NCBI GenBank assembly: GCA_029561355.1
Contig: JAKQJD010000267.1
Location: 3,299 to 67,298 of the forward strand
DNA from: Bacteroidota bacterium
GTDB taxonomy: Bacteria > Bacteroidota > Bacteroidia > Chitinophagales > Saprospiraceae
Direction: 5' to 3'
Length of the DNA: 64,000 bases
A program made the translations under genes and the position numbers. The notes beneath the pieces are model-generated. The model did no database searches. It saw only the letters and a list, made by a program, of their open reading frames with translations, and was not told the DNA's origin. This document shows, piece after piece, positions 2,464 to 54,062 of this stretch (its first letter is position 1; the number at the start of each line of letters is the position of its first letter).

Positions 2464-2514
2464 TGGATAAAAGCATTTTCAGCATCCGTTTGATAAATCT
2501 GGCGGGCATACACC

Positions 2515-3414: not shown

Positions 3415-3420
3415 CTTTTT

Positions 3421-3466
3421 GAATGATGAACGATGAATGATGAACGATGAATGATGAACGATGAAT
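3421..3466. repeat. Tandem repeat, 14-nt unit gaatgatgaacgat x3
   Basis: Read directly: gaatgatgaacgatgaatgatgaacgatgaatgatgaacgatgaat. The same words recur at 59896-59946. Confidence 0.9.
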
Positions 3467-3476
3467 TTTGACCCGG

Positions 3477-4247
3477 TTATTTCCGGAATTTCAACAGGCC
3501 CAGATGGGCGAAAAATTGCATTATTTGATAGCCGGCATCGATTTGCAGATACGTGTTTCCCAGATTGGCGCGGTCGGCGCGGTCGTGGTGATGCGCATGC
3601 CAGCCTTCACCAAAAGTGATATAAGCCAAAAACCTGTTGTTTCTGGCACGGTGAAAAAGCGCGCCCGGCTTCCCCGATAAATGTCCAATCGAATTGATCG
3701 AATCACCCAGATTATAAATGACGACGAAAGTAAGCCAGGTGGCCACAATACCGCTTGTTCCGAAACACGCGTATGCAAAAACAAGCAAAACCGTCGCGTA
3801 CAACCACATAATGCCTTGATAAACAAACTTCCGGCTCAGCCAACAGCAAAAGGGATCCTGCTGAATGTCCATAGCATTGTCGTTGTATTGCTGGTTGGTT
3901 CGGGGTCGCCAGTACCCGTCGAAATACATTCTGAAAACACCTGCCAACGCGTAAGCCAGGCAAATTAAAGCATTTTTAGAAGGAATATACCAGCCGCAAT
4001 GCGCGTACCGGAATCCGTCGAGTACCGGCGAATGCGGATCACCCGGCTTGTCGGCAAAGCGATGGTGCTGCCGGTGCGTGCCTACCCATTGTACCGGCGT
4101 GCCAGACGGTAGCGCCAGCACGAGCAACACTTTTTTGAACAGCGGTTGCAGGGAGGCGACCCGGTGCGTGAGTATCCGGTGGTACATAACGGATGCACTC
4201 AGGCCACCCAAACAATAAAGCACGAAACAATACGCCAGCAGGGCCAT
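3477..4247 (-). CDS. Acyl-CoA / acyl-lipid fatty acid desaturase (membrane di-iron, delta-9-like family)
   Basis: Three histidine boxes are present: HRILTH, HRQHH and HAHHH. Hydrophobic membrane segments. 256 aa. Confidence 0.85.
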   Translation of the reverse strand: MALLAYCFVLYCLGGLSASVMYHRILTHRVASLQPLFKKVLLVLALPSGTPVQWVGTHRQHHRFADKPGDPHSPVLDGFRYAHCGWYIPSKNALICLAYALAGVFRMYFDGYWRPRTNQQYNDNAMDIQQDPFCCWLSRKFVYQGIMWLYATVLLVFAYACFGTSGIVATWLTFVVIYNLGDSINSIGHLSGKPGALFHRARNNRFLAYITFGEGWHAHHHDRADRANLGNTYLQIDAGYQIMQFFAHLGLLKFRK

Positions 4248-4257
4248 TTTTTTGAGA

Positions 4258-6105: not shown

Positions 6106-6869
6106 TTTTTGGTTTTAGTGAAAAGATCGTCCATAAAATTGGTCAGAAAGCCGAATTTATGACCGGCTTTGCCGTGGTGGTCGTTGTGCTTGGTGGCAAA
6201 AAGCAGCCACCGCGGCCGGGTTTTGAGGATCAAACGGTAATTGGAATGCCCGCTGAAATTGATCAGAATGCTCACCGTCGGGAACAGCATTAGTGCCGCC
6301 GCCGAAAAATTGTAAAACGGCGCGATCACCAGCAACACGCTGCTCAACAACGCCGCCTCCACCGGATGAAAACTATATACGGAAAACACCGACGGCACGA
6401 CGGACTGGTGGTGTACGCGGTGCACGTGTTTCATAAAATAGGGCAGGTGCAGGAGGCGGTGGATCAGGTAAAAATGGATTTCATTCCAAAGCGTCAGCAC
6501 CAGCAGTCCCCATAACGTGTTGAGCAAGGTTATTTCGCGCAACTGAATGATATTCAAATTGATAAGAAATTTCAACGGCCAGGCGGAAAACCCGAAAATA
6601 AGGATCGAGTACAGGGATTGGCGCAGTTCGAAACGCAATTGTTCGCGTGTGTAAGGCCGTTCATTGATCTTTTCCGCCCAGCCCCGTTGCTGTAGGAGGC
6701 GGCAGGTTTTCCAGAACAGCCATCCGAGACCGAAGTACAAAAAAGCGAAATAGAGGGTGGTAAATAGCAGCAGTTCGCCGTAGGAAAAGGCGGTAAAAAT
6801 GGAATTGAAAAAAGTGGCTAACCAATGATTCATGCCGAAGGATGTGTTGGTGCAAGAGATGCGGCACAA
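6102..6869 (-). CDS. Fatty acid hydroxylase / sterol desaturase superfamily membrane protein
   Basis: Histidine boxes HRLLH, HRVHH and HNDHH. Multiple TM helices. The true start may be the internal Met at 6833 (MNHWLATFF). Confidence 0.8.
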   Translation of the reverse strand: MCRISCTNTSFGMNHWLATFFNSIFTAFSYGELLLFTTLYFAFLYFGLGWLFWKTCRLLQQRGWAEKINERPYTREQLRFELRQSLYSILIFGFSAWPLKFLINLNIIQLREITLLNTLWGLLVLTLWNEIHFYLIHRLLHLPYFMKHVHRVHHQSVVPSVFSVYSFHPVEAALLSSVLLVIAPFYNFSAAALMLFPTVSILINFSGHSNYRLILKTRPRWLLFATKHNDHHGKAGHKFGFLTNFMDDLFTKTKK

Positions 6870-6946
6870 AAGTGGGGCAAGAATGCAATGGGAAATCCGC
6901 GTCTTGTAATAATGAAATATTTATTTTTATTAAATATTATATTTGG

Positions 6947-8656
6947 TTACGGGATGTTAAAATTCTCATTGACCCGGTCGATCACAATCGCCAGCACCTT
7001 TTTGGCTCGGGAACTAGCCACGTACAATTCATTCAGGTGAGAAAACGACTGCCCTTTTGAAATAATGAGAATCCCGTCCGCTTCCAGGCCCTTAAAAGAA
7101 GACGTTTCCAGCACCGGGATCTCGTCGGGGTCATTGCTGATTTTTTCGCTGAACTGGTAAGTAATGTGCTTTTCGAGTCCGCTGCTCCAGTCGGCCTGAG
7201 CCAGAAATTTCAACAAAAAGTACTTCGTGATCGTGGCATCTACCATATTCAGATCGAGCGCTGCTTTGCCTTCCGATTCGATCCATTTAACACGGTTGGT
7301 GTTGGCAATTTGAACCCCGATTTTGGAAATCACGTGGTTCATATGGATTTTTTTGTACTCTTCCGATGCCAGTGTTTGTATTAATTCAATATCTCTGCTA
7401 TTGGGCAGTACATCATCACTGGCCGATTTTATTTTATCCAAAACGTCGTTGTTGAACCCCAGCAACCTGAATTTTTCTGAGAGTTCCCTTTTCCAGCCCA
7501 TGCCGATCGGAATAGAATGACTCACCATGCCGAATTCCCAGGTATTGATATCGAGGTCACCCGCAATTAAAACGACCGGATTTCGAATATTTTCCTTGCT
7601 TTTCATCCAGTGAATAGCACTGAATACCTTGCTTTTTAATGTGTTCGGATCGGAATAAACGAACAGTTTAACCTTGCCAAGATCTTTCATTTCCATCGAC
7701 GTTTCGGGCGACTGGTAATGAAAATTGGATTTGATGAACTCGTAAATTTTACCGCTGTTCCGACAGTTTTTGGATAGATCCACAATAGGTTCTTCTATCG
7801 GATATACTGAGCGGTAAGGCAGAAGCGCCTGATTGTCGTCGTGAAAAATATACAGGATTTGTTCTTTCCCTTTGGCGAGCAACGCTTCCACCACCAGCCA
7901 CCAGTCTTCCCTGAAATCCTGCGCTTCGTCGACGATTACCGCATCGAAGTGCATGTTTTTATTTTCAATAATCCGAAGCGCATGCTCGAGTTCTTCCTGT
8001 AGCGGTTCGTAATATTTGTTCCAGCCCATCTGCTGCATACTTTCGTACTCGTTCAGGTTCTGAATCAACTGGCCGAACGTGGTAACGAACACGCTGGAGC
8101 CTGAAACCAGGTTTTTGATCTTGTTCGAAAGATTGGGGTTGTGGCACAAAACGAGTACACTCATCCCCGTTTTCGACAAGCGGATTGCTTTCTCGGCAGC
8201 CACTAGCGTTTTCCCCGAACCGGCGCAGCCCGAAATCCGGACTTTTTTCATCTTGTTGATAAAGTTGAGCACCTTGAACTGCTCGTTCGTCAGTTTCTCG
8301 ATGGCCGAATCCAGGATGGCATTGTCAAATGAAAAGACGTTTTTTTCGGCGTGTTCCACCGGCGCCCGCTCCCTTGCCGTTGCCTTCGAAACCAGGCTCA
8401 AGAGGTCGTATTTGATCTTGTTTAGTGCCCTGCTCTCTTCATCGAACGACAGCACGCCCGCCCGCACTTTTTTATTCAGGGAAATCAGGTTGGATTTCAG
8501 AATGATCAACTCGTTTACGATTTCGCTGTGCTCTTCCTCATGGTAAAACAAATCGATGGCCTCCAGGACATTATCGTCGACAATTAAGTTTTTTACAGAC
8601 TCCTGATAATTATCCATGGCGCTTGAAATGACTTGATTTTTTGCGGGTACCAACAT
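6947..8656 (-). CDS. Superfamily-1 (UvrD/RecD-like) P-loop helicase with a distinct N-terminal helical domain
   Basis: Walker A GCAGSGKT. Walker B/DEAQ box AVIVDEAQDF. C-terminal helicase motif VASSRAKKVLAIV. The N-terminal ~95 aa form a separate helical module. The gene is visibly AT-richer than its flanks. The start may be the internal Met at 8617. Confidence 0.75.
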   Translation of the reverse strand: MLVPAKNQVISSAMDNYQESVKNLIVDDNVLEAIDLFYHEEEHSEIVNELIILKSNLISLNKKVRAGVLSFDEESRALNKIKYDLLSLVSKATARERAPVEHAEKNVFSFDNAILDSAIEKLTNEQFKVLNFINKMKKVRISGCAGSGKTLVAAEKAIRLSKTGMSVLVLCHNPNLSNKIKNLVSGSSVFVTTFGQLIQNLNEYESMQQMGWNKYYEPLQEELEHALRIIENKNMHFDAVIVDEAQDFREDWWLVVEALLAKGKEQILYIFHDDNQALLPYRSVYPIEEPIVDLSKNCRNSGKIYEFIKSNFHYQSPETSMEMKDLGKVKLFVYSDPNTLKSKVFSAIHWMKSKENIRNPVVLIAGDLDINTWEFGMVSHSIPIGMGWKRELSEKFRLLGFNNDVLDKIKSASDDVLPNSRDIELIQTLASEEYKKIHMNHVISKIGVQIANTNRVKWIESEGKAALDLNMVDATITKYFLLKFLAQADWSSGLEKHITYQFSEKISNDPDEIPVLETSSFKGLEADGILIISKGQSFSHLNELYVASSRAKKVLAIVIDRVNENFNIP

Positions 8657-11718: not shown

Positions 11719-13278
11719 ATGTTAGTAAAAACCTATGCGGGCTCCGTCCATGGGGTCGATGCGCAAACGATCACCATCGAAACCAACACCGGTGGCGCAG
11801 TCGGCAACACCGACAAACTCGGCATTTTTATCGTCGGTCTACCCGACAGCGCCGTGCGTGAAAGCCTCCCGCGCATCGAAGCCGCTGTGAAGAACTCCGG
11901 CTTCCGGCTTCCACGACTCAAAACGATCATTAACCTCGCCCCTGCCGACATTCGCAAGGAAGGTTCCGCATTCGACCTGCCCATCGCGCTGGGTATGCTG
12001 GCCGGCTCGGGCGTGATCCCCCCCGATGGGCTCGACGAGTATTTTATCATGGGCGAACTCTCGCTTGACGGCTCGCTGCGGCCCATCAAAGGGGCCCTGC
12101 CGATTTCCATTCAGGCAAGAAAGGAAAAATTCAAGGGATTTATTTTGCCCAAAGCCAATGCGCGCGAAGCCGCCATCGTGAGCGACGTGGCTATTTACGG
12201 CGTGGAAAACCTGTGCGAAGCCATCGAAATTCTGAGTGGCGAATCGGACATCAAACCCTTGCAGGTGAATACCCGCGAAGAATTCGCCCATGCTGCCGGT
12301 GTCTACGATGTCGATTTCGCCGACGTCAAAGGCCAGGAAAACATCAAACGCGCCCTCGAACTGGCGGCTGCGGGCGGCCACAACGTCATCCTGATCGGTC
12401 CGCCGGGCGCAGGCAAAACCATGCTGGCGCGGCGCCTGCCCACCATCCTGCCGCCACTCACACTCTATGAGGCGCTGGATACTACGAAAATCCATTCCGT
12501 TTCCGGCATCCTGCCCGACAACGCCGCGCTGGTCACCACGCGCCCATTCCGCGCGCCGCACCACACCATCAGCGATGTAGCCCTCGTGGGCGGCGGCTCG
12601 GATCCCATGCCGGGCGAGATCAGTCTGGCGCACAACGGCGTTTTGTTTCTCGACGAATTGCCGGAGTTCAAACGCACCGCGCTCGAAGTGATGCGGCAGC
12701 CCATGGAGGAGCGCCGGGTGACCATCAGCCGTGCCAAGGTGAGCGTCGATTATCCCGCGAGTTTTATGCTGGTGGCTTCCATGAATCCCTGCCCCTGCGG
12801 CTACTACAATCACCCCGATAAAGACTGCGTGTGCGGCCCGGGCGTCGTCAAACGCTACGTCTCCAAAATCTCCGGTCCGCTGCTCGACCGCATCGACCTG
12901 CACGTGGAAGTGACGCCGGTGAGTTACGACGAACTCACCACCACCGAACGCCCCAAACTCACGAGCACGGACATTCGCGAACGTGTGTTGCTCGCCCGCG
13001 AAGTGCAGGCCGAACGGTTCAAGGATCTTCGCGACGTGTATTCCAACGCGCAAATGCCCAGCCGAATGGTGCACGACGTATGTAAACTTGATTCCACCGG
13101 TCTGACTTTGTTAAAAACGGCCATGGAACGGCTGCAACTCAGCGCCCGGGCGTATGACCGGATTTTGAAGGTGGCGCGGACGGCGGCGGATTTGGCGGGG
13201 AGTAAGGATATTCGGATTGAGGATTTGGCGGAGGCGATACATTATCGGAGCTTGGATAGAGAGGGATGGGCGGGCTAA
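11719..13278 (+). CDS. comM: YifB/ComM family Mg-chelatase-like AAA+ ATPase
   Basis: 519 aa. N-terminal Lon-protease-like region, Walker A GPPGAGKT, Walker B VLFLDELPEF, and the zinc-ribbon-like NPCPCGYYNHPDKDCVCG characteristic of ComM/YifB. Confidence 0.95.
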   Translation: MLVKTYAGSVHGVDAQTITIETNTGGAVGNTDKLGIFIVGLPDSAVRESLPRIEAAVKNSGFRLPRLKTIINLAPADIRKEGSAFDLPIALGMLAGSGVIPPDGLDEYFIMGELSLDGSLRPIKGALPISIQARKEKFKGFILPKANAREAAIVSDVAIYGVENLCEAIEILSGESDIKPLQVNTREEFAHAAGVYDVDFADVKGQENIKRALELAAAGGHNVILIGPPGAGKTMLARRLPTILPPLTLYEALDTTKIHSVSGILPDNAALVTTRPFRAPHHTISDVALVGGGSDPMPGEISLAHNGVLFLDELPEFKRTALEVMRQPMEERRVTISRAKVSVDYPASFMLVASMNPCPCGYYNHPDKDCVCGPGVVKRYVSKISGPLLDRIDLHVEVTPVSYDELTTTERPKLTSTDIRERVLLAREVQAERFKDLRDVYSNAQMPSRMVHDVCKLDSTGLTLLKTAMERLQLSARAYDRILKVARTAADLAGSKDIRIEDLAEAIHYRSLDREGWAG

Positions 13279-13470
13279 TACTTCGTTGTTCGATATTCGG
13301 TGTTCGGTGTTCGGTGTTCGATATTTTTTAAATTTCGAACACCGAACACCGAATATCGAACAACGAAGTAAAGTATAAATGATTGAATATAATAAGTTTA
13401 TGAACCAGAAATCTAATTCCAAATACGATCTTGAAGATAGGCTGATTGAATTTGCGGTGCGCATCATTGA
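12787..13470 (+). repeat. Left copy of the ~0.7 kb direct repeat (comM 3' end, hairpin, first ~90 nt of the four-helix-bundle gene)
   Basis: Manual alignment with 43952-44650. Homology starts at ccctgcccctgcgg and ends at gcatcattga in both copies. Confidence 0.9.
13279..13370. repeat. Long word-repeat hairpin (GGTGTTCG / CGAACACC words) immediately 3' of comM; probable terminator
   Basis: tacttcgttgttcgatattcggtgttcggtgttcggtgttcgat...atttcgaacaccgaacaccgaatatcgaacaacgaagta forms a stem of about 40 bp. Confidence 0.85.
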
Positions 13471-13771
13471 TCTGGCAGAAGCCTTGCCCGGGACTGTAGC
13501 AAGCAAAAACCTGGGTAGCCAAATCGTGCGTTCCGGAACGTCACCCGCTTTGAACTATGCAGAGGCTCAATCCGCTGAATCAAAAAATGATTTTGTGCAT
13601 AAGATGAAAATTTGCCTGAAAGAATTGAGGGAAACCCTGGTGTGTCTGAAAATCATTTTACTAAAAGGATATTTCAAAGAAACCAAACTGGCCGCTCTGC
13701 TAAAGGAAAACAGTGAGTTGATTTCGATTTTTGTCAAAAGCATTCAGACGGCAAAAAACAATGCAAAATGA
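13379..13771 (+). CDS. Four-helix-bundle protein (23S rRNA intervening-sequence protein family)
   Basis: 130 aa. Family-typical motifs: LEDRLIEFAVRIIDL, QIVRSGTSPALNYAEAQSAESKNDFVHKMKICLKELRET. Confidence 0.85.
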   Translation: MIEYNKFMNQKSNSKYDLEDRLIEFAVRIIDLAEALPGTVASKNLGSQIVRSGTSPALNYAEAQSAESKNDFVHKMKICLKELRETLVCLKIILLKGYFKETKLAALLKENSELISIFVKSIQTAKNNAK

Positions 13772-14463
13772 AGGAATATTAAAGGCCTGGCGAGCCCGCT
13801 ATTGGCCTAAAATTAATTGCAAAACGAAACGGGTTCCGCCACTGGTTTGGGAAAAATAATGAACCGATTTCTATTTTCGTTATACCAATACGATAACCGA
13901 TCACTTGAGTTGCGATTTGCGATTGGATTTATGAATGGAGATTTTTTTGAATGGCAATCACTTCTTTATAAATGAAAGTAACGAGTAGATTGCCATATTT
14001 GTAGCGAGTAACAAAACCGTTTCAATGAAAAAGTCATGCCTGACTCGAAGCGTAAATCGCCAATCGGAAATCCAATCGGAATTTACTCCGATAAAGACAC
14101 CGCTATCTGCGCCTGATGAAGAATCCGCCGCGTTTCTGCATCCGTAAAAATACCTGTTTTTAAATTCGAGTATTTCTGCTCTATGTATCTGACTTTGTCG
14201 GAGTACATCTTTGCATAAAGAATTATTGATTGGATAATGTTCAGGTCGATAGTTCAGTGAAAAGGAACTGGGCGCCACAAACACTCCTTGCTATTCCGGC
14301 AAAGGCCCTTCTTTACTAAAATTTGGTATTGGTTTCCAACCGGCGTACAACCGCCACTCACCTTGCACTTGCACCGGCCGGGGGTAAGATGTCGTGCCTT
14401 CCGGCAAGGCGTCTGAGTACCGACCACGTTAACTACATATCTAACACCATTTAAATTAAAATT

Positions 14464-16314
14464 ATGGGATACGATCCAAATGAATGTACCAGGAAAATTG
14501 TGGCGAAAGGCCGCATACCTTGCGACGGGTTGAGCCTGCCTTATCATTGCGATACGATTACCGGCGTGGGCGGTGACTACCACGATGAATGTGTCGACGC
14601 AGGAATTATTTATTTCCAGGTAAGGGTGGCTACCTGCTGGAATTCGACAACCAATCAGTCGAGGTACTTTCCGCCTTCTACCTTTTTCCGCGACTGCGAC
14701 GCGCTGCACAGTCAGGACCCGGCCTGGCAGCAACGCTGGTGCTACTGCTGCTGTGCCTGTTTTGCCAAAGATACCCTCGTGGCGGTACCGGGCGGATATG
14801 CGGAAATATACACCATCCCGCAGGGCGCCAAAGTGCTCACTGCTTCTGCCTATGAAAAGGGCGGACTGACGTGGTCCGAGTCAACCGTAAAATTCAGTAT
14901 GGGCACAGGCGAAGGCCCACAACCGTTTATGGTGTACATCGGCTTCGAAAAAGAAGGTACGAAAGACCTGATCTGTACGCAAGAACAGCCTTTCCTGCTC
15001 TCCAACGGGAAATATACCACCGCCGGCAAACTTACCCCCGGCATGCAACTGGTGGATAAAGAAGGGGAACCGGTAGACATACAGTTCGTGAGCCTCGGTT
15101 ATTACGATGGCGCAGTGCACCACATCGCTACTGCCGCGCCCTGGACGGGTTCTCCGGCCGGGCACCTGATCCTTGCAGGCGGCGTTGTAGCAGGCGACTT
15201 CGAAATGCAAATCAAATTCGGAGAACTTCCTGACCACCTGAAAGATGACGTGGATAATACACAGCCGGTGATCGGAACCCAGGCGTACGACGAGGCAGTG
15301 AGCAAACTTGGCAATGTTTCCATGCCTTCCGATGCCCACTTTCAGTTCAGATACAAAAATACGGCGGGCGGAAATGAAACGTCGAAACAACTCGGAAGCG
15401 GCGTATTCAAAACCTATAGCCGGATCACTTCACCCGTGCCGGTGGGCGCCCAGTCATTGCTCACCGCTCAGCAGGCCCGCGATGTACTGAAAAACGGCAC
15501 GCAGGTGACGTTCTCGGACCCTACACCGAAATATTTCTTTGAAACTGCGCAGATCCAGCTTAATGCCTATTTCCCTGACATCGTCTTCTACTACGATGCA
15601 TTCGATATGCTCCCCAATGTGTATGCTTTCGACGCGTACGGAAAGAAGATCGTTCAGGTTTCGGGGGGGCTGGCACGGCTGGCAGAATTTAATTTCGAAG
15701 GCCTTATCATGGCGATGGCGCACGGCGCCGGATGCTTCTATGGAGGCGCGCCTAAAACTTTCGACGGATATACCGCCGTTGGGCAGGCCGATCGCTTCGC
15801 CTTCGGGTCTGTTACCCGCAGTTTGTGGCTGGGCGATCCGGCATTCGGGTACATCGATGCAGGTATTCGTCAATGGATGTATATGTTCGATCTCATCAAC
15901 CCGGACCACAGAGGCGGTACCGATCCCATTTCCAACCCGTCTATCGAATGCCGGGAAATGGTCATACAATCGGCGCCGTTTGGCGGCGGGCTACCTCCAT
16001 GCGCAGGCGGCACACCTCCCAGACTGATCCAGTTGCAGGTTGCGCAGGCCGTTTCCCTTACGCAGGTGGAACTCGTATTCAACCTCGCTATTAATCCGGA
16101 AACAGCAAACAACGTAGCCAACTACGAGTTTTCACCGGAAGTAAAGGTGCTCCAGGCCAGACGAAGCGTGGAAAAAGATTTCGTAGTAGAACTAGAACTC
16201 GAAACAGAACTGACGGCCGGCGAATCTTACCGGGTTACCGCCAAAAACCTTCAATCGGCTTTGGGTACGGGTATGGACCCGCTGCACGCCAGCGCGGAAT
16301 TTACTGCCCCATAA
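14464..16314 (+). CDS. Hint (Hedgehog/intein-like) domain protein with a Cys-rich N-terminal region and an Ig-like C-terminus
   Basis: 616 aa. The Hint module spans about aa 99-245 (nt 14758-15198). It starts CFAKDTLVAVPGG..I..IPQGAKVLT and ends AVHHIAT...HLILAGGVVAGD. A CYCCCAC cluster precedes it. The C-terminal ~90 aa resemble an Ig-like (SbsA/Big-type) domain. Confidence 0.75.
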   Translation: MGYDPNECTRKIVAKGRIPCDGLSLPYHCDTITGVGGDYHDECVDAGIIYFQVRVATCWNSTTNQSRYFPPSTFFRDCDALHSQDPAWQQRWCYCCCACFAKDTLVAVPGGYAEIYTIPQGAKVLTASAYEKGGLTWSESTVKFSMGTGEGPQPFMVYIGFEKEGTKDLICTQEQPFLLSNGKYTTAGKLTPGMQLVDKEGEPVDIQFVSLGYYDGAVHHIATAAPWTGSPAGHLILAGGVVAGDFEMQIKFGELPDHLKDDVDNTQPVIGTQAYDEAVSKLGNVSMPSDAHFQFRYKNTAGGNETSKQLGSGVFKTYSRITSPVPVGAQSLLTAQQARDVLKNGTQVTFSDPTPKYFFETAQIQLNAYFPDIVFYYDAFDMLPNVYAFDAYGKKIVQVSGGLARLAEFNFEGLIMAMAHGAGCFYGGAPKTFDGYTAVGQADRFAFGSVTRSLWLGDPAFGYIDAGIRQWMYMFDLINPDHRGGTDPISNPSIECREMVIQSAPFGGGLPPCAGGTPPRLIQLQVAQAVSLTQVELVFNLAINPETANNVANYEFSPEVKVLQARRSVEKDFVVELELETELTAGESYRVTAKNLQSALGTGMDPLHASAEFTAP

Positions 16315-16383
16315 TTCGACGTACAACACATCATCTGTAGAAGAGGCGGTGGCCTGAAACCACCGCCTCCCTTTGCCCATCGT

Positions 16384-19300
16384 ATGGCGTATACCGCATA
16401 TACGGCCCGTTTTTTCAAATTTCACTTCCAGTATATGAATAACAATCCTGTCAATGGCGACATGGATATGAGAAGACCTTCTTTTCAGGAGATTACCATG
16501 CCGAAGGGTGGCGGGGCCATGCGAGGCCTGGGCGATACTTACAAAGCGGATCTCTTGAAAGGCACAGGGGCTTATTCCATTCCACTACCGGTAACGCCGG
16601 CAAGAGGGTTCGAACCCCAATGGAGCCTCGACTACAATTCGGGAGCAGGCAACAGTGCATTCGGCCTGGGCTTTTCGCTTGCCATTCCGGGCATTTCGAT
16701 CAATACCGAAAAGAGAATCCCTCGTTACGACGGGCATGATGTATTTATTTCGGCCGATCAGGGCGAACTGGTGCTTCGGGAAAGCACCGCGCAGGCGCCC
16801 AACCCACGTAAAGTGACTACGGAAACCGGACAATACGACGTGTTTACGTACCTGCCTCGCATCGAATCTGCTTATTCCCGAATAGAGTGCTGGAAAAAGG
16901 AAAATAATGCAGAAACCTACTGGAAAGTAACGTCCCGGGAAAATGTGGTTTCCTACTTTGGACGCAACGCTGCCTCCCGTATTTTCAACCCGGACGATCC
17001 CTTGCAGGTGTTCGAATGGCTGCTCGACGAATCTATCGACCCAAGAGAGAATCGCGTCCTGTACAACTATCGGGAAGAAAACGAGGCCAACGTACCGAAG
17101 GAGGTATACGAGGTAAACAGATCCTGTACGGCACAGCGTTATCTCCACAGTATCCAGTACGGAAATTATGTGAACCCCGACGGCAACGGCGAGCGGTTCG
17201 CATTCACCGTTGTATTCGATTACGGGGAATACGACATCAGCAATCCGATTACAGCCTGGACGCCCGTTCGGGAATGGGCTTGCAGGCCCGATCCTTTCTC
17301 TAGTTACAGAAGCGGATTCGAGATCAGAACATTCAGACTTTGCCAGACAGTCCTTCTTTTCCACCATTTCGAAAGAGAGCTGGGGGCGCCTTTCCTCGTC
17401 AAAGCCACGACACTGGAATATAGCCACGCGGAGGCTTACGACCCGATCCGTTTTTACGGAATGTCGAAGATGAAAAAAGCGGGTCTCCTGGCCTTCCGGA
17501 AAACGTCGGAAAGCGCTTTCCGGAAGCAACAACTCCCGCCCCTCGAATTCGCATGGTCCGAAATGATTGCCCCGGAACGCCCGGAATTCCGCACGCTGAC
17601 CACCACCGACGGGTTTCCGATACCGGGTTATCTGGAGCCGGGCCAGTTCTTTCCCATCGATCTGAATGGCGAAGGTATTCCGGGATTGCTGTACACCGAC
17701 GGGCAATCGGTACTGTATCTCGAACCGGAAGGGGATGGGAAATACAAGCGGCCTGCCGTTCTGCCGGATTTTCCAATCAATCGGAACATAGGCGAAGGCA
17801 AGGTTTCCATTCAGGATGTGGATGGAAACGGTCATCTGGAACTCGTGGTTGCCGATGAAAACAAAGCAGGATTCTACGAACGGGTAGATGGAAAAGCCTG
17901 GCAACACTTCCGGCCCTTCCTGCGATATCCAACTGATTATGCCCATCCGCAGATGGAAAATGCCGATCTGGGCGGAAACGGCAAGTCAGACCTGCTACTA
18001 ATTAGCCGGAATGAGATAAGCATTTATAATTCGGAAGGAACTACGGGCTACGAACGGCTCCGTACCGTATTAAACGAGAACGGAATTCCAATAGCCGGCA
18101 GTCGTAATCCGGCAGAACTGGTAAGTTTTGCCAATATCTTCGGCGACGGGATGGCGCACCGCGTACGCGTCACCGGAAACTCGGTAGAATGCTGGCCATC
18201 GCTCGGATACGGGAATTTCGGCGAACAGGTAACGATGGGCAATCCGCCCGATTTCGGTGAGCAATTCGATGCGGCACGGCTTTACTTTGCCGATATAGAC
18301 GGTTCTGGCACCGCCGATTTGATCTACGTACATCCGGACAGGGTAGAGGTTTACCTGAACCAGTCGGGAAATTCCTTTTCAGCGCCTGTCACCATTTACC
18401 TTCCGGCGCCTTTCAGCGCACTTGACCAGATCAATTTTGCCGATATACTGGGCAACGGAACTTCGTGCCTGGTTTTTACCAAAATTACGCCCACCCCCGT
18501 TCAGTACTGGTACAATTTTGCCGGGGAAACGCCAACGGAAAGCGGAAATGTAACTGCCTGCATCAAACCATATCTGCTGTGTCAAATAGACAATCATTTA
18601 GGCTCCCTTACTACCATTCGCTACGGTAGTTCCACGCGCTACGCACTGGAAGATAAACAAAAGGGGCGCCCCTGGCCTACCACACTTCCATTTCCGGTGC
18701 AGGTAGTGGAAGAAATCTCTATCCACGACAGCATTTCGGGCTTGCACACAACGCAACGCTATTCGTGGCACGATGGATATTATGATTCGCAGGACAGGGC
18801 TTTTCGCGGCTTCGGTTATGTAGAATCCTGGGACACAGAATCGGAAGAGAGCGGGGCAGGAAAAACGGGCTCCATCTCACCCGTTTACACCCGTTCCTGG
18901 TTTCTTACCGGGGCTTACGCCGAATACAATACCCTGCTGAATCAGTACCGACAGGAGTATTTCAACAAGGATACGGAAGCGCTCGACTTTCCCCGCAGCT
19001 TTTTCGATCCCGATATTTACAGCCACAATGATTCCACCATCAGGCAGGCTTATAATGCATTGAGAGACAAACTCCTGCGCCGGGAAGTGTATGCCGCCGA
19101 CCTTTCCACGCTGTCCGACATTCCTTACACCGTGGAAGAATCCAACTACACCGTGGTATTAATTCAGGCTGCGAATGAAGAGGACCATGGCGTGTATCGG
19201 ATAGACAGCCGTGAAAGCATTGTATACAACTACGAGCGCAACTACCAGGACCCGGCCGCTACTCAGCAATTTACGCTGGAAGTGGACCCCCTGTGTGGAG

Positions 19301-38502: not shown

Positions 38503-39581
38503 ACGAATATACCGTACACAAATATCTGAACGTACGCGTCGGACGGCCGTCGCTTTCCGCTCCATGTTATCAGTTCCTCGCTCCGGGTAGCGTACTGCAA
38601 ACGGACGGACGGATCTACAAAGGCGACCCGTTCGAAGGTGTCGACGACTGGCTGAAAGATGAAGCCGGTAATTACTACTGGAGTGGCGGAGTGATCGGGG
38701 CGTCGAAAAACGAAGCGGGACGCTCCGATTACTGGTTTAGCCAGCTTGGTATCGATACGATCTGGCAGACATTTGGCGAAAAAGGTTCCCGTGCCCGTGT
38801 GCTGGTGCTCGACACCGGAATCAACGATTTTCTCCCGGTATTCGAAGGAGCCGTCGCGGAAGGGCATAAAATCAATTTTGTAAATGGGTCACGTGATCTT
38901 TTCAGCAATGACCAGGATTGCCACGGCACGCATTGTGCCGGACTCATTGCCGCTCGTCCGGGCCAATATTCCGTGGGTGTCGCACCGGAATGCCAACTAC
39001 TGATTGGAAAAATATCTGAAGACGGCATGCTCGGCGACGGCGCTACTATGCGCAGGGCACTCGAAGCATTTCTGGCGCCTCAATATGAATTCGACATTAT
39101 TTCCATCAGCGCCACCATGATGCAGGAAGATGCGGAATTGCGGCGGCTGATCGACGAGCATATTCAAAAAAACCGGATCGTGCTGGCAGCCATCGGCAAC
39201 GATCCGTTGTCCCGAAACCTGCCCTATAAAAAGTACCCCGGCTATTTTGATAGTTGTATTTCCGTCGGAGCCTGCGAATACGACCGCCTGATTTCCGGAT
39301 ACACCTGTTCGCCGCAGAAAGCCACCATCCATTGTTTCGGCACCCACATCGGTTCCTATCAGAAAAGCAGTATACCCCGGCCGCTGAAAGGTACCAGCCA
39401 GGCAACGGCCATTATGGCGGGTATTTGCGCCCTTGCGGTATCGTTTCTCAAAAAAAGAAACCGCTCTTTCAACCAGGAAACGTTCAGGCAACTGCTGCAA
39501 AGCAGTGCCGATCCGCTCGAAAATTTTCATGCTGCCCTCGTCAACCCGGTTTCCCTCTTCCACGCTTTAAAAACTTTATAA
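38499..39581 (+). CDS. S8 (subtilisin-family) serine peptidase with an SH3b-like N-terminal domain
   Basis: Catalytic triad contexts VLVLDTGIN (Asp, nt 38811-38813), HGTHCAGLIAA (His142, nt 38922-38924) and GTSQATAIMAG (Ser300, nt 39396-39398). The N-terminal segment YLNVRVGRPSLSAP....L.PGSVLQ is SH3b-like. No signal peptide seen. Confidence 0.85.
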   Translation: MNEYTVHKYLNVRVGRPSLSAPCYQFLAPGSVLQTDGRIYKGDPFEGVDDWLKDEAGNYYWSGGVIGASKNEAGRSDYWFSQLGIDTIWQTFGEKGSRARVLVLDTGINDFLPVFEGAVAEGHKINFVNGSRDLFSNDQDCHGTHCAGLIAARPGQYSVGVAPECQLLIGKISEDGMLGDGATMRRALEAFLAPQYEFDIISISATMMQEDAELRRLIDEHIQKNRIVLAAIGNDPLSRNLPYKKYPGYFDSCISVGACEYDRLISGYTCSPQKATIHCFGTHIGSYQKSSIPRPLKGTSQATAIMAGICALAVSFLKKRNRSFNQETFRQLLQSSADPLENFHAALVNPVSLFHALKTL

Positions 39582-39585
39582 AACG

Positions 39586-41766
39586 ATGAAAAACAACAAT
39601 ACCTCTTTCCGCTGCCTGTTGGCCGCCCTGCTGTTCTGTGGTACACTGTCTGCTCAGGATCGCATTGCATATTATGACGCTATGGATTTTGCCCGGATTT
39701 TCCATAAAAGCGGCAAAATCTCCACGCAGGATCCCTCAGTAGCAGCTATGCTCGGACCCTATTTCCCGAATGAGGTGATCAATACAGGCTCAAATCCGTT
39801 CCTGAAAGATTATTTCGACGATAACACGGTGGCCGCAGCAGGGCAGGGCCGCGGGCTCGATACCGGAAAAGGATTGCCTCTTGCAGGAGGTCTGGCCGGC
39901 CTCGACGTCACGACCATCACCGACGGCATGGCCCGATTTATGATCAAACGGGCCAAAGAAGAACTCTCCGTGGCTTTTTTTGAAAAATTCAAAAAATTCA
40001 GCGAAGAAAAACCGGAATTCAAGGCGCTGTTTCCCCGCACGACGGAAGCACTGACCAACCTGCTTTCATACCATTACACGGAAATGCTGCCGGCACTGCG
40101 CATCCATTTCTACGACGATCTGACGGCACTGCCGCTTCATCTGGAAGACCTGCTGGAACTGGAAAAATACCGCCCGCTGTTGAAAGAATTTCCCGAACTG
40201 CGACTGATCGTTCAGGTGCTTCGCCTGATACATATCAGCATTGCGGAAAATTCCAACCCCGCCGATATGCTGGAGGCTTTCGCCGTACTGTCGGGCTGGG
40301 ATTTGCCAAATGAAAAATTCGAGGTAAAAAATGTGGGCGCCTCACTGAAAACAGCCCACCTGTTCTCGCGCCACCTCCGCAAAAACGACGGAAGCGCTAT
40401 CTGGGTCTCGCAGGCCGAAGTGCAAAGAATGTTATCTGACCGGGCAGCATTCGAGATCTTCCTGGGCTTGCTTTACCAGACAGAAGCATTGAAAATCCAT
40501 AAAACCTTTTTCTACCGGTCGCCGGTCGACAGTATCAGTGTTCAGGCCTTGCTCGAGGCCGGACAAATCGATGCCCATGATTTTCTGAGCAAACTGATGA
40601 TGCTCACCGACAAGATTGGCAGTGTTCGAGCGAGCCTTCAGGAAAAACGTATGGCAGACGTTCCGCCTTCCAAAGATGATTACTACGAGTTCATCAACAG
40701 TTCAATCGATGTGATAGAACTGGGATTCGATCTGAGCGCGTACCTTGGAGTCTCTGTTCAGGTAGGCCGGTTCACGGATATTGCACGCAGCGCCAATGGC
40801 CTGTTTAAAAACATTTACACGGAAGATTTCCCGGCAGCCATTACCCAATTGAATACGCTGTTGGAAAAAATCGCCGTTTTAATTAAAGAGAAAAGACGTA
40901 AAGATACCGAGATGCTGGCCGGCGCACCTGCTATCGTCGCCACAAATATCACTTCCGATAAGGCGCGTCGGGTGCTGGAGCGCATACAGAAGGGTGATAC
41001 CGAGCGAAAAAAACTCTCTCCAGCCTGTGTAAAACTGCTCGAAAGGGAACTTGTCAAAAACCCGGAAAGTGTGCTCACCCCGCAGCAAAAGCAACAGTTG
41101 TCGCTGCTGCTTTCCGTGCGCAGATATGAAAAAATCGAATCGGTATTGGGTAAAATCAACCGCTACGGCCTTTTTATGGCCAACATGGCAGGGGCCAAAT
41201 CGCCGGAAGAAGTGGAAGAAATACTCGAAAATGTGACCTTACCGGTTGGCAGTTCTTCCATCAAGAAAAATGCCCGCTTCAACGTGTCGCTGCAGTCCTA
41301 CCTGGGTGCCTATTATTTGCCTAATCCGGCTTCCGGCGACCTCGCCACCGCCTGGAATGATCCGTTCGGTGTACACGCGCCCATCGGCATCTCCTTTAGT
41401 ACGGGTTTTGGCCGCGCAGGCTCGGTCAGCCTTTTCGGTTCGCTGCTCGATATCGGAGCCGTAGTGGATTACCGGCTCCGTTCCGAGCAGGTAGTGAAGG
41501 ATGATGGCAGCATGACGACTGCCACCGTGAGGGACTACAAAATTCAACTCGGCCAAATTTTTTCACCCGGCGCATACCTGGTGTATGGTTTTCCTTTCAA
41601 ACTGCCATTGGCCTTTGGTCTGGGCAGCCAGTACGGACCGGGTTTGACACAGCTGAAAACCGACGGCGGCACAGTGCTTAATAACCCCAAATGGCGGTTC
41701 AACTTGTTCCTGAGCGTCGATATGCCGCTACTTACCTTCCGTAACTGGCGCAAAAACGATCACTAA
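39586..41766 (+). CDS. Secreted protein of unknown function (helical body, beta-rich C-terminus)
   Basis: Signal peptide MKNNNTSFRCLLAALLFCGTLSAQD. It starts 4 nt after the S8 gene stop. The last ~200 aa have an alternating hydrophobic pattern and end in ...LLTFRNW. Confidence 0.6.
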   Translation: MKNNNTSFRCLLAALLFCGTLSAQDRIAYYDAMDFARIFHKSGKISTQDPSVAAMLGPYFPNEVINTGSNPFLKDYFDDNTVAAAGQGRGLDTGKGLPLAGGLAGLDVTTITDGMARFMIKRAKEELSVAFFEKFKKFSEEKPEFKALFPRTTEALTNLLSYHYTEMLPALRIHFYDDLTALPLHLEDLLELEKYRPLLKEFPELRLIVQVLRLIHISIAENSNPADMLEAFAVLSGWDLPNEKFEVKNVGASLKTAHLFSRHLRKNDGSAIWVSQAEVQRMLSDRAAFEIFLGLLYQTEALKIHKTFFYRSPVDSISVQALLEAGQIDAHDFLSKLMMLTDKIGSVRASLQEKRMADVPPSKDDYYEFINSSIDVIELGFDLSAYLGVSVQVGRFTDIARSANGLFKNIYTEDFPAAITQLNTLLEKIAVLIKEKRRKDTEMLAGAPAIVATNITSDKARRVLERIQKGDTERKKLSPACVKLLERELVKNPESVLTPQQKQQLSLLLSVRRYEKIESVLGKINRYGLFMANMAGAKSPEEVEEILENVTLPVGSSSIKKNARFNVSLQSYLGAYYLPNPASGDLATAWNDPFGVHAPIGISFSTGFGRAGSVSLFGSLLDIGAVVDYRLRSEQVVKDDGSMTTATVRDYKIQLGQIFSPGAYLVYGFPFKLPLAFGLGSQYGPGLTQLKTDGGTVLNNPKWRFNLFLSVDMPLLTFRNWRKNDH

Positions 41767-41800
41767 AACAGGGGCCGTACGCTGGTGTAACACATGTGGT

Positions 41801-41844
41801 GACCTATCGGAAGCACTGTTTTCGGACCGTGCTACCGATAGGTC
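41801..41844 (+). terminator. Hairpin closing the protease operon
   Basis: gacctatcggaagcac / gtgctaccgataggtc forms a 16-bp stem with one mismatch and a 12-nt loop. No clear T-tract. Confidence 0.45.
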
Positions 41845-41999
41845 CCGCAACTTGAATTGGTGGAGGTACGATGTGTCGAAGTGAAAACACCTGACTGGAA
41901 ATCATGTAATCATAAATCCTTACTTTCGTTTGCCTAAAATTAATCGCCAAACGCGGCTGGTTTCCGCAAGGAACACTAACGGCACTTAAAAATGAAAGT

Positions 42000-42956
42000 A
42001 TGAAACATTTCATATACATACTTCCCTACCTGCTTCCGATAACAATCTCGGCTCAGGCAATGGCAGATACCACAACATTCAGGGTTCCTGCAAACTATAC
42101 CATTGCAGTTGAATATTATTTAAAAAAAATAGAAACAGGCGAAACGGGCCCTGACAATTTTTATCAGGCAGCCTGCTATTTTTCCTTGCTGAACAACCAC
42201 GATATGGCTTTCACTTATTTAAAAGAAGCCATCACCAGAGGTGCAAAAGGAGAAGATGTAATGACGGATACCGACTTCGATACTTTAAAACAGGATTCAA
42301 ATAGATGGAATGAAATGGAATCCTTGTTAAAAGTACAATATGTTGAACGCAATCCGGGGATTTCAAAAATAGATCTAGGTTATGAACTTTGGCTGATGTG
42401 GATAGAAGATCAAAAGTTCCGGACATTAAAAAAGAACTATAAGTTAAAGGGCCAACCCATTACCGATATAGAAAAACACAACAAACATTTATTGCGAATA
42501 AAGAGAATCGTTGAAGATGCCGGCTGGCCAAAATACAGCGAAGTCGGAATAGAAGCGGGCGATGCTGTGTTTTTTATCTTTCAGCATGATGATGCGAAAA
42601 ACATGAAAAATGTGTTGCCTGAATTTATTGCTGTTGCAAAAGCGGGTGAAGCGGATCTAAAAAAGGCGGCTATGATGATCGACCGGTATTTAGCATATAC
42701 CGAACACCTGCAACTTTATGGAACCCAGGCATTTCGAAAAATTGAGCAGGGGCAAAATCGAAATGATATTCCTTTAGAATTGTATCCGATAGCAGATGAA
42801 GAACACCTGTTGGAAAGGCGTGCGGCAATTGGTATGACTGATTTTTTTGAAAATTGCAAAAGATTGGGTGTCGAGTACATACCTGTTCAAAAGCGAAGCA
42901 ATTATAAAGCCATTGCAATCAAGAAGAAATGGATTAAAGCAGGTTATTTACTTTGA
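42000..42956 (+). CDS. Hypothetical secreted protein (TPR-like N-terminus)
   Basis: Signal peptide MKHFIYILPYLLPITISAQA. 318 aa. The gene is AT-rich compared with the surrounding island. Confidence 0.55.
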   Translation: MKHFIYILPYLLPITISAQAMADTTTFRVPANYTIAVEYYLKKIETGETGPDNFYQAACYFSLLNNHDMAFTYLKEAITRGAKGEDVMTDTDFDTLKQDSNRWNEMESLLKVQYVERNPGISKIDLGYELWLMWIEDQKFRTLKKNYKLKGQPITDIEKHNKHLLRIKRIVEDAGWPKYSEVGIEAGDAVFFIFQHDDAKNMKNVLPEFIAVAKAGEADLKKAAMMIDRYLAYTEHLQLYGTQAFRKIEQGQNRNDIPLELYPIADEEHLLERRAAIGMTDFFENCKRLGVEYIPVQKRSNYKAIAIKKKWIKAGYLL

Positions 42957-43101
42957 ACGGGGATTCATGCAACAATGCCGGCCACATTCGAAGCGTAAAG
43001 GCAAGACTTGTGTAGACTTAGTAACAGTTGATGACGCACGTCATCGGAAGGGTATAAAATATAGGGTTTATTTGTATGTTTTTCATCAACATACAACTAC
43101 C

Positions 43102-43413
43102 ATGAGCTTAAAAAAGAAATTTCTAAAATCAGGTAATTTATGCACCGTCACTTTCTCTTTGCCGAAAGAATCATTAAACGGTGCAACCGAGGTAAAAATA
43201 CTGGGCGATTTCAATGAATGGAACGCGGATCGGGGCATTCCCATGAAGGATAAAAGCGGAATCTTCACAGGCTCCATAAATTTGCCCTGCAATGAGGAAT
43301 ACCAGTTCCGCTATCTGATTGGTAATGGCACGTGGGAAAATGACTGGGCTGCGGACAAATACGTTGCTTCCCCTTTCGGGGTAGAAAATTCTGTTGTTAA
43401 CGTGGTTGCGTAA
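43102..43413 (+). CDS. Small CBM48 / isoamylase-N (AMPK beta-like) carbohydrate-binding domain protein
   Basis: From the Met at 43102: MSLKKKFLKSGNLCTVTFSLPKE..ATEVKILGDFNEWN......MKDKSGIFTGSINLP..EYQFRYLI.G.W.ND. This matches the E-set/CBM48 pattern. Confidence 0.6.
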   Translation: MSLKKKFLKSGNLCTVTFSLPKESLNGATEVKILGDFNEWNADRGIPMKDKSGIFTGSINLPCNEEYQFRYLIGNGTWENDWAADKYVASPFGVENSVVNVVA

Positions 43414-43591
43414 GTACTTGCCCTATGAGCATGGCATACCGTCGCATGACACGATAAACAGGGTAATATCTTTGATTGACGGACGTGCATTTGAGCAATG
43501 TTTTATCGATTGGGTACAGATGAGCATTTCCTTGCCGGGGAACGTTTCAGACGCGTCCCCGGATGAGGCTGTCGTTTATCGAGTTCTATAA
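43409..43591 (+). mobile_element. Fragment of an ISAs1-family transposase N-terminal region (decayed)
   Basis: LPYEHGIPSHDTINRVISLIDGRAFEQCFIDWVQ matches the conserved ISAs1/H-repeat N-terminal motif (GIPSHDTFNRVF..LD...FE.CF..W). There is no DDE domain downstream, and it overlaps the 3' end of the XRE ORF. Confidence 0.6.
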
Positions 43592-43946
43592 ATCTCAGAT
43601 TCGATTCATCACAGCCAATCATCTTGGCGGCTTCTTCCTGTGTCATACCGTTCACCAGCCGGGCAAGATGAAGTCGCTTACCCAATGAACCTTCTTCAGA
43701 AGCAAATGGCATATACCCAAGAAAGCCAATGATCGCTTTGGCAAGTTTTGCCGGAGGTTGGTGCCTGTTCATTTCCCAGCCAGTCACTGTATCAGGTGTT
43801 ACGTTCAGAATTTTCGCCACAGCAGATTGCGATAAGCCCCGGTCAAGCCTGACCGTGCGAAGATGATCGCCTAAGGTCTTCAATTCGGCAGGATATGCAG
43901 GATTAGGCAACCGCTTGCCTATTAAAGTCAGGTGACAAAAATGCAA
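43503..43946 (-). CDS. XRE-family protein with two helix-turn-helix domains (C-terminus possibly corrupted by the IS fragment)
   Basis: Two HTH_3-like units: LGDHLRTVRLDRGLSQSAVAKILNVTPDTVTGWE and LGKRLHLARLVNGMTQEEAAKMIGCDESNLRFIE. Its start abuts the right direct repeat. Confidence 0.65.
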   Translation of the reverse strand: MHFCHLTLIGKRLPNPAYPAELKTLGDHLRTVRLDRGLSQSAVAKILNVTPDTVTGWEMNRHQPPAKLAKAIIGFLGYMPFASEEGSLGKRLHLARLVNGMTQEEAAKMIGCDESNLRFIELDKRQPHPGTRLKRSPARKCSSVPNR

Positions 43947-43951
43947 CGCAA

Positions 43952-44443
43952 CCCTGCCCCTGCGGCTACTACAACCACCCCGATAAAGACTGTGTGTGCG
44001 GCCCCGGCGTCGTGAAACGCTACGTCTCCAAAATTTCCGGCCCTTTGCTCGACCGCATCGATCTGCACGTGGAAGTGACGCCGGTGAGTTACGACGAACT
44101 CACCACCACTGAGCGACCCAAACTCACGAGCACGGACATTCGCGAGCGTGTACTGCGAGTCCGGGAGGTGCAGGCCGAACGGTTCAAGGATCTTCGCGAC
44201 GTGTATTCCAATGCACAAATGCCCAGCCGGATGGTGCACGACGTTTGTAAACTTGATTCTACCGGTCTGACTTTGTTAAAAACGGCGATGGAACGCCTGC
44301 AACTCAGCGCCCGGGCGTACGATCGGATTTTGAAGGTGGCGCGGACGGCGGCGGATCTGGCGGGGAGTAAGGATATTCGGATCGAGGATTTGGCGGAGGC
44401 GATACATTGTCGGAGCTTGGATCGGGAGGGGTGGGCGGGCTAA
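43952..44443 (+). pseudogene. comM: Orphan 3' fragment of a second comM allele (last ~163 codons)
   Basis: It aligns with comM 12787-13278. I counted about 33 substitutions in the last ~450 nt, nearly all synonymous. There are only 3 amino-acid differences (LLAREV vs LRVREV, HYRS vs HCRS). It has no 5' part, Walker motifs or promoter context. Confidence 0.9.
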
Positions 44444-44549
44444 TACTTCGGTGTTCGACAATCGGTGTTCGATATTCGGTGTTCGGTGTTCGATATTCGA
44501 TATTTAAAAAATATCGAACACCGGACACCGAATATCGAACACCGAAGTA
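44444..44549. repeat. Word-repeat hairpin (GGTGTTCG words), paralogue of 13279-13370
   Basis: tacttcggtgttcgacaatcggtgttcgatattcggtgttcggtgttcgatattcgat...atcgaacaccggacaccgaatatcgaacaccgaagta. Confidence 0.85.
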
Positions 44550-44557
44550 AAGTATAA

Positions 44558-44650
44558 ATGATTGAATGTAATAAGTTTATGAACCCAGAAATCAAATTCC
44601 AAATACGATCTTGAGGATAAGCTGATCGAATTTGCGGTACGCATCATTGA
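44558..44650 (+). pseudogene. Truncated, frameshifted 5' fragment of a four-helix-bundle protein gene
   Basis: It aligns with 13379-13470. It has a 1-nt insertion (gaacccagaa vs gaaccagaa), and homology stops abruptly after gcatcattga. Confidence 0.8.
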
Positions 44651-53930: not shown

Positions 53931-54062
53931 TGTATCGTATGATTTTGAATTAGAACACCACAAAATTACCGTCTGAAATCCGCAGTTCACGGGTGCGATA
54001 TAGACATCCTTCCGGGTTGATCTGGACAGAATAAGCGCCTACCTTTGCCCAAAATTTTTAGC

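Follow-up and report, generated by a model that had tools for sequence, protein, structure and literature searches.

The stretch of DNA analysed here, referred to as the window, comprises 64,000 nt of contig JAKQJD010000267.1 (positions 3,299 to 67,298; GenBank assembly GCA_029561355.1) from a bacterium of the family Saprospiraceae. It includes a complete comM gene, and the last 163 codons of this gene are found a second time, without the 5' part, about 31 kb downstream. Sequence comparison identifies the inner edge of this second, orphan copy as the attachment point of a family of mobile elements that targets one fixed site in comM. What is left in the window is a decayed and immobile genomic island, whose repeats delimit an old insertion of such an element in comM. 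The original prediction, made from the sequence of the window alone, had described the footprint of an element that integrated into comM and carried a replacement 3' end, and this is largely supported, the same junction being present in at least 18 other loci.

Direct repeats of the comM 3' end

The intact comM gene (11719-13278, forward strand) encodes a YifB-family Mg-chelatase-like AAA ATPase of 519 aa with the Pfam domains Mg_chelatase, ChlI and Mg_chelatase_C, and is a full-length match to TIGR00368 (592 bits; cut-off 362). The left repeat (12787-13470, forward strand) starts inside this gene at the site coding for PCPCGY, and consists of the comM 3' end (12787-13278), a hairpin, and the first 92 nt of a four-helix-bundle gene (13379-13771, forward strand; 130 aa; PF05635, TIGR02436) of the 23S rRNA intervening-sequence protein (IVP) family. 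The right repeat (43952-44650, forward strand) is made up of the displaced comM 3' end (43952-44443), in which the reading frame is open and only Mg_chelatase_C is matched, a hairpin (44462-44549, forward strand) and a fragment of the four-helix-bundle gene (44558-44650). As predicted, the left copy completes an intact comM and an intact four-helix-bundle gene, and the right copy is an orphan without the comM 5' part; its four-helix-bundle fragment is truncated at 44650 and frameshifted through 1 nt inserted at ~44585. The right copy also shows a 14 nt indel in the hairpin region.

Repeat finding returned three collinear blocks in direct orientation, each ~92% identical (12787-13086/43952-44251, 13283-13406/44462-44585 and 13405-13470/44585-44650). 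In the MAFFT alignment, homology sets in abruptly at 12787/43952 and is lost abruptly at 13470/44650, and the predicted limits of both repeats proved to be exact.

The coding part shared by the two repeats (492 nt, i.e. 163 codons and the stop codon) is 92.9% identical and specifies three amino-acid changes (L/R, A/V and Y/C), in agreement with the predicted values of ~93% and three, while the number of mismatches is 35 and not ~33. Third codon positions account for 28 of the 35, and the Nei-Gojobori method gave a synonymous divergence (dS) of 0.34 and a non-synonymous divergence (dN) of 0.008, with a dN/dS ratio of 0.024. Under neutrality, the probability of three or fewer non-synonymous differences among 35 is 5e-17. 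When the differences were polarised with five outgroups, 14 were assigned to the left branch and 17 to the right (orphan) branch; the changes from A to V and from Y to C are derived in the orphan, at positions invariant in the five outgroups. As judged by this split and the dN/dS ratio, the orphan was part of a working comM for nearly all of its history, and has been released from selection only briefly. Selection thus acted on both copies during most of their divergence, and the earlier view that they evolved as functional comM genes in different lineages before they were juxtaposed is supported by the substitution pattern. Identities to seven relatives, determined separately for the comM 5' part and for each of the two 3' ends as a test for a break in ancestry at the core, showed no informative difference.

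The hairpins have perfect stems of 36-40 bp located after the comM stop codon and are made of the 7 nt units GGTGTTC/GATATTC. The left hairpin (13279-13370, forward strand) follows the stop codon directly, with a folding energy of -64.7 kcal/mol and a z-score of -14, and the z-score of the right hairpin is -13. The hairpin is also found in locus L104 (694-765), and z-scores across the copies range from -11 to -14; between copies, entire units are swapped in both arms, which preserves the perfect pairing. At locus L034, 219 nt that begin right after the comM stop codon and reach into the four-helix-bundle gene occur twice, the second time ~600 nt downstream (7360-7578 and 7971-8188, 95% identical), and no copy of the comM 3' end accompanies the duplicate.

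A recurrent junction in comM

The junction lies at comM codon 357/358, in the conserved stretch coding for PCPCGY (CCC-TGC-CCC-TGC-GGC-TAC) and 163 codons before the stop codon, rather than near the 3' tip of the gene. In the window, the displaced comM 3' end is directly adjoined by the element terminus ACAAAAATGCAACGCAA (43935-43951, forward strand), which has a single match in the window. The start of a gene encoding an XRE-family protein and the orphan comM end are 5 nt apart.

The conserved end of the element reads ATGCAACGCA(A/C), followed by three variable nt and then by TG(C/T)CC..., which is the first Cys codon of PCPCGYY, and this motif was found in the same place in 34 loci. An identical junction, TGACAAAAATGCAACGCAA joined to CCCTGCCCCTGCGG, is present in L104, a 1.4 kb contig from a related species, where the comM 3' end is ~86% identical to that in the window and the XRE gene is only 73% identical. 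A scan of metagenomes added 31 loci, 18 of them with an XRE gene next to an orphan comM end. In all, the orphan comM begins at residue 1-2 of the same 163 residues and adjoins the XRE gene in at least 18 loci from many lineages besides L104 (L105-L112, L116-L120, L123-L126, L129-L133, L135, L137 and L138 are included among the loci of this arrangement). Dozens of database proteins are likewise orphan fragments read through the junction, for example ...YAT(N/Q/H) followed by PCPCGYY, or ...FDNYATQ followed by PCPCGYY.

The inner edge of the right repeat is hence a recurrent and sequence-specific junction, which places the start of this repeat at the attachment point of the element. The signature ATGCAACGCA, 3 nt, TGYCCNTGYGG could be used to map the elements and their cargo, including the defence slot described below, in metagenomes.

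Loci with additional comM 3' ends

The arrangement seen in the window, an intact comM followed at a distance by an XRE gene and an orphan comM end, was also found in L125, a 150 kb JGI contig. The interior of 7.7 kb in L125 encodes KilA-N, a Cro-like helix-turn-helix (HTH) protein and proteins secreted by the type IX secretion system (T9SS), and the repeats, which are 90.3% identical, begin at the same core and end ~50 nt beyond the stop codon. Locus L135 (1-4870) consists of two tandem units of XRE gene and orphan comM that are 93% identical, an arrangement that calls for two or more comM 3' ends in one genome. In three of the GTDB loci, decayed remnants of the comM 3' end lie within 1-3 kb downstream of an intact comM, located at 2438-2602 and 4416-4576 in L002, at 6140-6237 in L033 and in the region 2494-3594 of L020. 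The remnant in L020 is 116 nt long and starts from the same site, with only xisH/xisI between it and the intact comM. Several displaced comM 3' ends can accumulate downstream of one comM, as seen in L135 and L002.

A purely disruptive insertion cannot generate additional, diverged comM 3' ends, which would be accounted for by an element that carries a surrogate 3' end.

The element family

A total of 112 homologues of the XRE gene were found, mostly in Saprospiraceae and often on short contigs. Where the related elements are covered far enough, the orphan comM and the XRE gene are followed by a variable defence slot and then by backbone genes, which include those for a ~1020 aa coupling protein of the TrwB/TraG-D type, a conserved 181 aa protein and ArdC, as well as a SymE-like gene. 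The slot is occupied by genes for a LexA-like protein, a CD-NTase and TIR-STING in L105 (2749-5395), by those for two N6-methyltransferases in L107/L117 (10637-13295), and by a PDDEXK_GAPS4 (GAPS4-type nuclease) gene in L110 (1444-4159). In L126 (16499-20272) there is no slot between the XRE gene and the TraG-like gene, and genes for OLD-TOPRIM and UvrD lie beyond ArdC.

No relaxase, type IV secretion system (T4SS) or integrase genes were seen in the 10 kb stretches of the related loci, no recurrent recombinase was present among the genes downstream of comM clustered across 80 loci, and no integrase was detected in Pfam searches of further open reading frames of the elements. Candidates followed for the other end of the element or an integrase, namely a comM fragment at a contig edge (P0188) and the XRE homologues P0109 and P0122, led to host genes or unrelated arrays, and a scan of viral contigs with the same aim returned no match. 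At 8730-8980 in L126, the end motif TTCGTTGCATTTTTGTA stands before what is left of a serine recombinase, 71 aa from its N terminus that match Resolvase (PF00239) at the cut-off; this remnant is located ~0.5 kb downstream of the orphan, and the sequence flanking the motif is only loosely like the comM core. The remnant is a lead to the recombinase of the family and no more.

A further XRE-related arrangement was observed in L152 (1-10408; Lewinellaceae, on a contig of 924 kb), where a tandem unit of ~5 kb consists of an XRE-fragment gene, a gene for a 343 aa protein and one for an S8 peptidase (1213 aa, with a T9SS tail). The XRE fragment near 4970 is preceded by the end motif and the copy at ~10000 is not, and no comM is located nearby.

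No description of comM-targeting elements in Bacteroidota was found in the literature searched, and the family is probably undescribed; the kind of system is known. Saprospiraceae are abundant bacteria of activated sludge and digesters. The findings provide a precise and conserved attachment site, together with an end sequence, for widespread and apparently undescribed mobile elements of this family of bacteria.

Remains of the element and content of the island

The double-HTH gene of the XRE family in the window (43503-43946, reverse strand; Pfam HTH_3/HTH_31) is truncated at its 3' end, and homology to its relatives is confined to ~43542-43946. In an alignment with 27 homologues, the encoded protein departs from the family after residue ~135. 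A fragment of an ISAs1-family transposase gene (43394-43540, forward strand; PF13808, NF033564), corresponding to residues ~28-70 of a 314 aa model, forms a 130 bp piece that adjoins and truncates the XRE 3' end, and it probably marks the deletion that removed the backbone of the element. The XRE gene had been counted as cargo, but is the terminal backbone gene of the comM-targeting element.

Only ~0.4 kb of the window (~43542-43951) is demonstrably element DNA, and the rest of the segment between the repeats, all of which had been taken for cargo, may or may not have come with the element. None of the backbone proteins of the related elements was matched in the window, no recombinase domain was detected in any open reading frame of the interior, as had been noted originally, and relaxase, coupling protein and mating-pair (transfer) genes are missing from the window, as are transposition domains of the Tns (TnsABC) type. 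The proposal that the island has been immobilised holds, given the loss of the backbone and the truncation of the XRE gene by the ISAs1 fragment.

The interior between the four-helix-bundle gene and the ISAs1 fragment (13772-43393) is of uncertain origin. A gene for a 616 aa protein with a weak Ig-like match (14464-16314) precedes the Tc toxin genes, which encode a TcB/TcC-like fusion protein of 2457 aa (16384-23757) and a TcA-like protein of 2761 aa (23790-32075). Domain searches confirmed these genes along with the ISAs1 fragment and the XRE gene, and the predicted Tc (ABC) toxin domains include those of TcA (VRP1, ABC_toxin_N and TcA_TcB_BD) and of TcB/TcC (SpvB, TcdB mid domains and RHS). 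The order of the Tc genes at 16384-32075, with the TcB/TcC-like fusion before the TcA-like gene, is here that of a Saprospiraceae bacterium from wastewater or digesters. Downstream of the Tc genes are three open reading frames without assigned function (32099-32704, forward; 32854-34440, reverse; 34495-35100, forward), a set of four genes that includes one for an S8 protease (35220-41766), and an AT-rich patch with DUF6624-like and CBM48-like genes (42000-43413).

The proposed comparison of base composition gave a divided result. Interior and outside sequence have the same GC content (0.506 and 0.504, respectively), while the 4-mer profile is mildly distinct, with 6 of 6 interior windows nearer to the interior profile and 7 of 7 flank windows nearer to the flank profile in a leave-one-out comparison; this mild signal may be driven by the two giant toxin genes. 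It is unproven that the whole 31 kb, with the Tc toxin and protease genes, was cargo of the element. That these genes lie within the limits of a dead element hints at their horizontal acquisition without proving it.

Origin of the island

The course of events that would account for these observations, and which is regarded as reasonably probable, is one in which an element brought in a surrogate comM 3' end, displaced the resident end and later lost its backbone. A mobile element of a family common in Saprospiraceae/Lewinellaceae would have integrated site-specifically at the PCPCGY stretch of comM, bringing a comM 3' end and some downstream sequence from a closely related earlier host. The incoming 3' copy would have been joined to the resident comM 5' part, keeping the gene intact and forming the left repeat, and the resident 3' end would have been pushed to the far side, beside the XRE end gene, where it forms the orphan of the right repeat. 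Genes for transfer and recombination would have been deleted later, the ISAs1 insertion in the XRE gene being the deletion joint, and truncation of the four-helix-bundle copy behind the orphan would have completed the decay to an immobile island, in which the two repeats would still exchange sequence by gene conversion in the population. Four parts of this account are inferred rather than observed: that the left copy arrived with the element, in what order the events took place, which type of recombinase acted, and what share of the 31 kb was borne by the element.

Several points weigh against this account. No intact element was traced to its other end, the surrogate comM 3' end was not seen directly, and no integrase was found among the related loci. 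An empty site, the search for which had been proposed, was not found: all of the same-species contigs are occupied, and the 80 GTDB loci provide none since nothing but comM is syntenic with the loci of other species. Homologues of the proteins encoded in the interior are absent from the related element loci, and the sequence beside the intact comM is wholly different in the window (IVP and Tc genes), L125 (KilA-N and HTH genes) and L135 (genes for T9SS proteins). The four-helix-bundle gene behind the orphan is cut at codon 31 in the window and at codon 85 in L104, and separate additional deletions are therefore needed.

Three further loci, designated type B, belong with these points. In L122 (4046-5504), L128 (132-1585) and L139 (10-1205), the XRE end adjoins, on the same strand, the part of comM that codes for residues 1-356 (its 5' part), so that the element is in the opposite orientation and comM is cut, with the same backbone genes in the neighbourhood. 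Such loci are not predicted by a simple directional integrase model. The ratio of the two arrangements, XRE gene beside the orphan or beside the comM 5' part, is at least 18 to 3; it would fit, as a conjecture, an element that integrates either way round and selection in favour of the insertions that restore comM.

Since the left repeat continues past the hairpin and enters a neighbouring gene that is complete, the surrogate end looks like a piece of the chromosome of a related host. Entry by capture of flanking DNA and homologous recombination has therefore to be weighed, in which case the interior would be, partly or wholly, the chromosome of a relative. Under this rather unlikely alternative, a disruptive element without a surrogate end would have captured its flank in a related donor, imprecise excision or Hfr-like transfer taking the comM 3' end, the hairpin, the IVP gene and possibly the Tc region, and would have entered by homologous (Campbell-type) recombination, with deletion of the backbone later. 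The interior would then be chromosomal DNA of a close relative and not dedicated cargo. The extension of the left repeat past the comM stop is what would be expected of captured chromosome, the 90-93% similarity of the copies, seen in L125 and L135 as well as in the window, is consistent with entry by homology from near relatives, and the type B loci show that the element can occupy comM without restoring the gene; the equal GC content of interior and flanks points the same way, as does the serine recombinase remnant of L126, which hints at a type of enzyme usually found without a copy of the target gene. However, a rare aberrant excision would be needed in at least three independent lineages, together with large deletions of the duplicated resident copy, and the decayed orphans of L002, L020 and L033, with very short interiors (including one with just xisH/xisI), are better explained by a small surrogate end carried on the element.

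An independent scar without any island is improbable. In this case, a 1.25 kb module (43394-44650), consisting of the ISAs1 fragment, the XRE fragment, the comM 3' end, the hairpin and the IVP gene fragment, would have moved in from an element-occupied comM locus elsewhere by recombination that was illegitimate or mediated by an insertion sequence (IS), and the 31 kb would be native. The module is bounded by the IS fragment on one side and by the abrupt break at 44650 on the other, and the lack of element genes in the interior and its GC content, equal to that of the flanks, agree with this reading. However, it would be a coincidence for the scar to lie in direct orientation 31 kb downstream of its own parent gene, the order of intact comM, XRE gene and orphan recurs in L125 and in tandem form in L135, and the 4-mer profile separates all interior from all flank windows.

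Duplication of the comM 3' region in situ, with subsequent decay of the extra copy, is very improbable and was rejected: the two copies are each other's closest relatives among the sequences retrieved (92.9% identity, against at most 86% to other species), but the substitution pattern, with a dS of 0.34, a dN/dS of 0.024 and an even split between the branches, contradicts this explanation by placing the orphan lineage under purifying selection nearly throughout, and the edge of the orphan is the recurrent junction of a mobile element. An assembly or binning artefact that joined the comM regions of two strains is scarcely credible, given that both junctions are reproduced in independent ENA, JGI and NCBI assemblies (>99.6% identity) and that a single 59 kb contig (ERZ27257431:k141_276433) spans both repeats with the identical spacing of 31,545 nt, and it was rejected even though the source is a metagenome-assembled genome and many contigs break inside the repeat or the hairpin.

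The carriage of a surrogate comM 3' end by the element is preferred. Homologue searches with the orphan sequences and cluster members, aimed at the donor lineage, gave only short fragments or orphans and no full-length partner gene. A tentative extension of the preferred account, possible but doubtful at present, is that an undescribed conjugative family of Saprospiraceae uses the PCPCGY site of comM in either orientation and maintains a working comM by means of a surrogate 3' end that is time and again renewed or captured from related hosts, along with adjacent chromosomal genes. If this is true, blocks such as the Tc operon would travel as hitch-hiking chromosome, as in specialised transduction, and serial integrations would build arrays of displaced comM ends.

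The locus in the source population

The source population belongs to the Saprospiraceae/Lewinellaceae and has been found in metagenomes of digesters and sludge. Among the GTDB representatives listed, which do not include that of the species itself, the best match to comM has only 84% DNA identity. Across the 80 GTDB loci, no synteny with the window around comM was detected at the DNA or protein level, save for comM itself and an occasional adjacency of comM and the IVP gene, which was also seen in L007, L034, L035 and L104. Exact-protein look-ups with ComM, the IVP and the downstream lipoprotein of the window retrieved only same-species contigs (>99.6% identity), all with the bracket structure.

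The same-species loci (L081-L103 and L146-L151) were compared after alignment to 12787-13278 and 43952-44443. Differences between these contigs amount to 0.02-0.4% in the flanks and to 1-3% in the comM 3' end. The left copies of several assemblies have patches of right-copy alleles, two right copies have left-type alleles, and 44235-44482 is missing from L103. The distribution of alleles suggests that the repeats recombine, either through gene conversion between them or through exchange with other alleles. A product without the island was not seen among the same-species contigs.

The left flank of the window (1975-8656) includes a lipid-type cluster, with genes for a DUF6999 protein, a fatty-acid desaturase, a ketoacyl synthase fused to a haem-oxygenase-like domain and a fatty-acid hydroxylase, as well as a gene with EAD11 and a Schlafen-like helicase, an architecture resembling that of defence genes. 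To the right of the island, some strains have ~100 extra bases at 54049-54103, upstream of an AraC/DJ-1 gene (as in L096/L099); the alignment restarts there with an overlap of 55 nt, which suggests a small tandem duplication or an insertion polymorphism.

Comparison with known systems

The island resembles gene-restoring islands and prophages in its diverged direct repeats, the copies of which differ mainly at synonymous positions. The e14 element and phage 21 in icd of Escherichia coli are examples in which the target gene is regenerated and a displaced fragment is left. Known cases duplicate tens of nt or ~50 codons, whereas the duplication here, with comM as target, covers 163 codons and ~190 nt beyond them, namely the hairpin and 92 nt at the start of the gene next to it. 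Other differences are that no integrase survives, that the element is of a conjugative type and resides in Bacteroidota, and that it is found in the opposite orientation at some loci. As described for the tRNA/tmRNA islands of Islander (PMC4383910), islands restore the target gene that they split and a displaced fragment marks the end of the island; integration within a gene, regeneration of the gene by an element-borne 3' part and displacement of the original part to the other end would be shared with the island described here.

The use of comM as a hotspot for large accessory islands recalls the AbaR/Tn6022-type resistance islands of Acinetobacter baumannii. AbaR elements have Tns genes and short target duplications and do not restore comM. 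They are Tn7-like and interrupt comM (PMC11014353), unlike the island in the window, which has no Tns genes, is located at another site in a comM that is intact, and has relatives with conjugation-type genes.

CTnDOT-like conjugative transposons and integrative and conjugative elements of the same phylum also have a coupling protein, ArdC and a variable accessory or defence slot near one end. CTnDOT has a tyrosine integrase and uses several loosely defined sites. The elements described here differ from it in their one fixed site in comM and in the XRE-family gene at their end, and relaxase, T4SS and integrase genes were not seen in the stretches of the related loci examined.

SXT, which integrates in prfC, supplies a new 5' end of its target gene. 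The dusA-specific islands, which also supply a new 5' end, share with the comM element site-specific integration in a conserved housekeeping gene and restoration of that gene by element sequence (PMC4482086). In contrast to both, the comM element would supply the 3' end of the gene that it enters.

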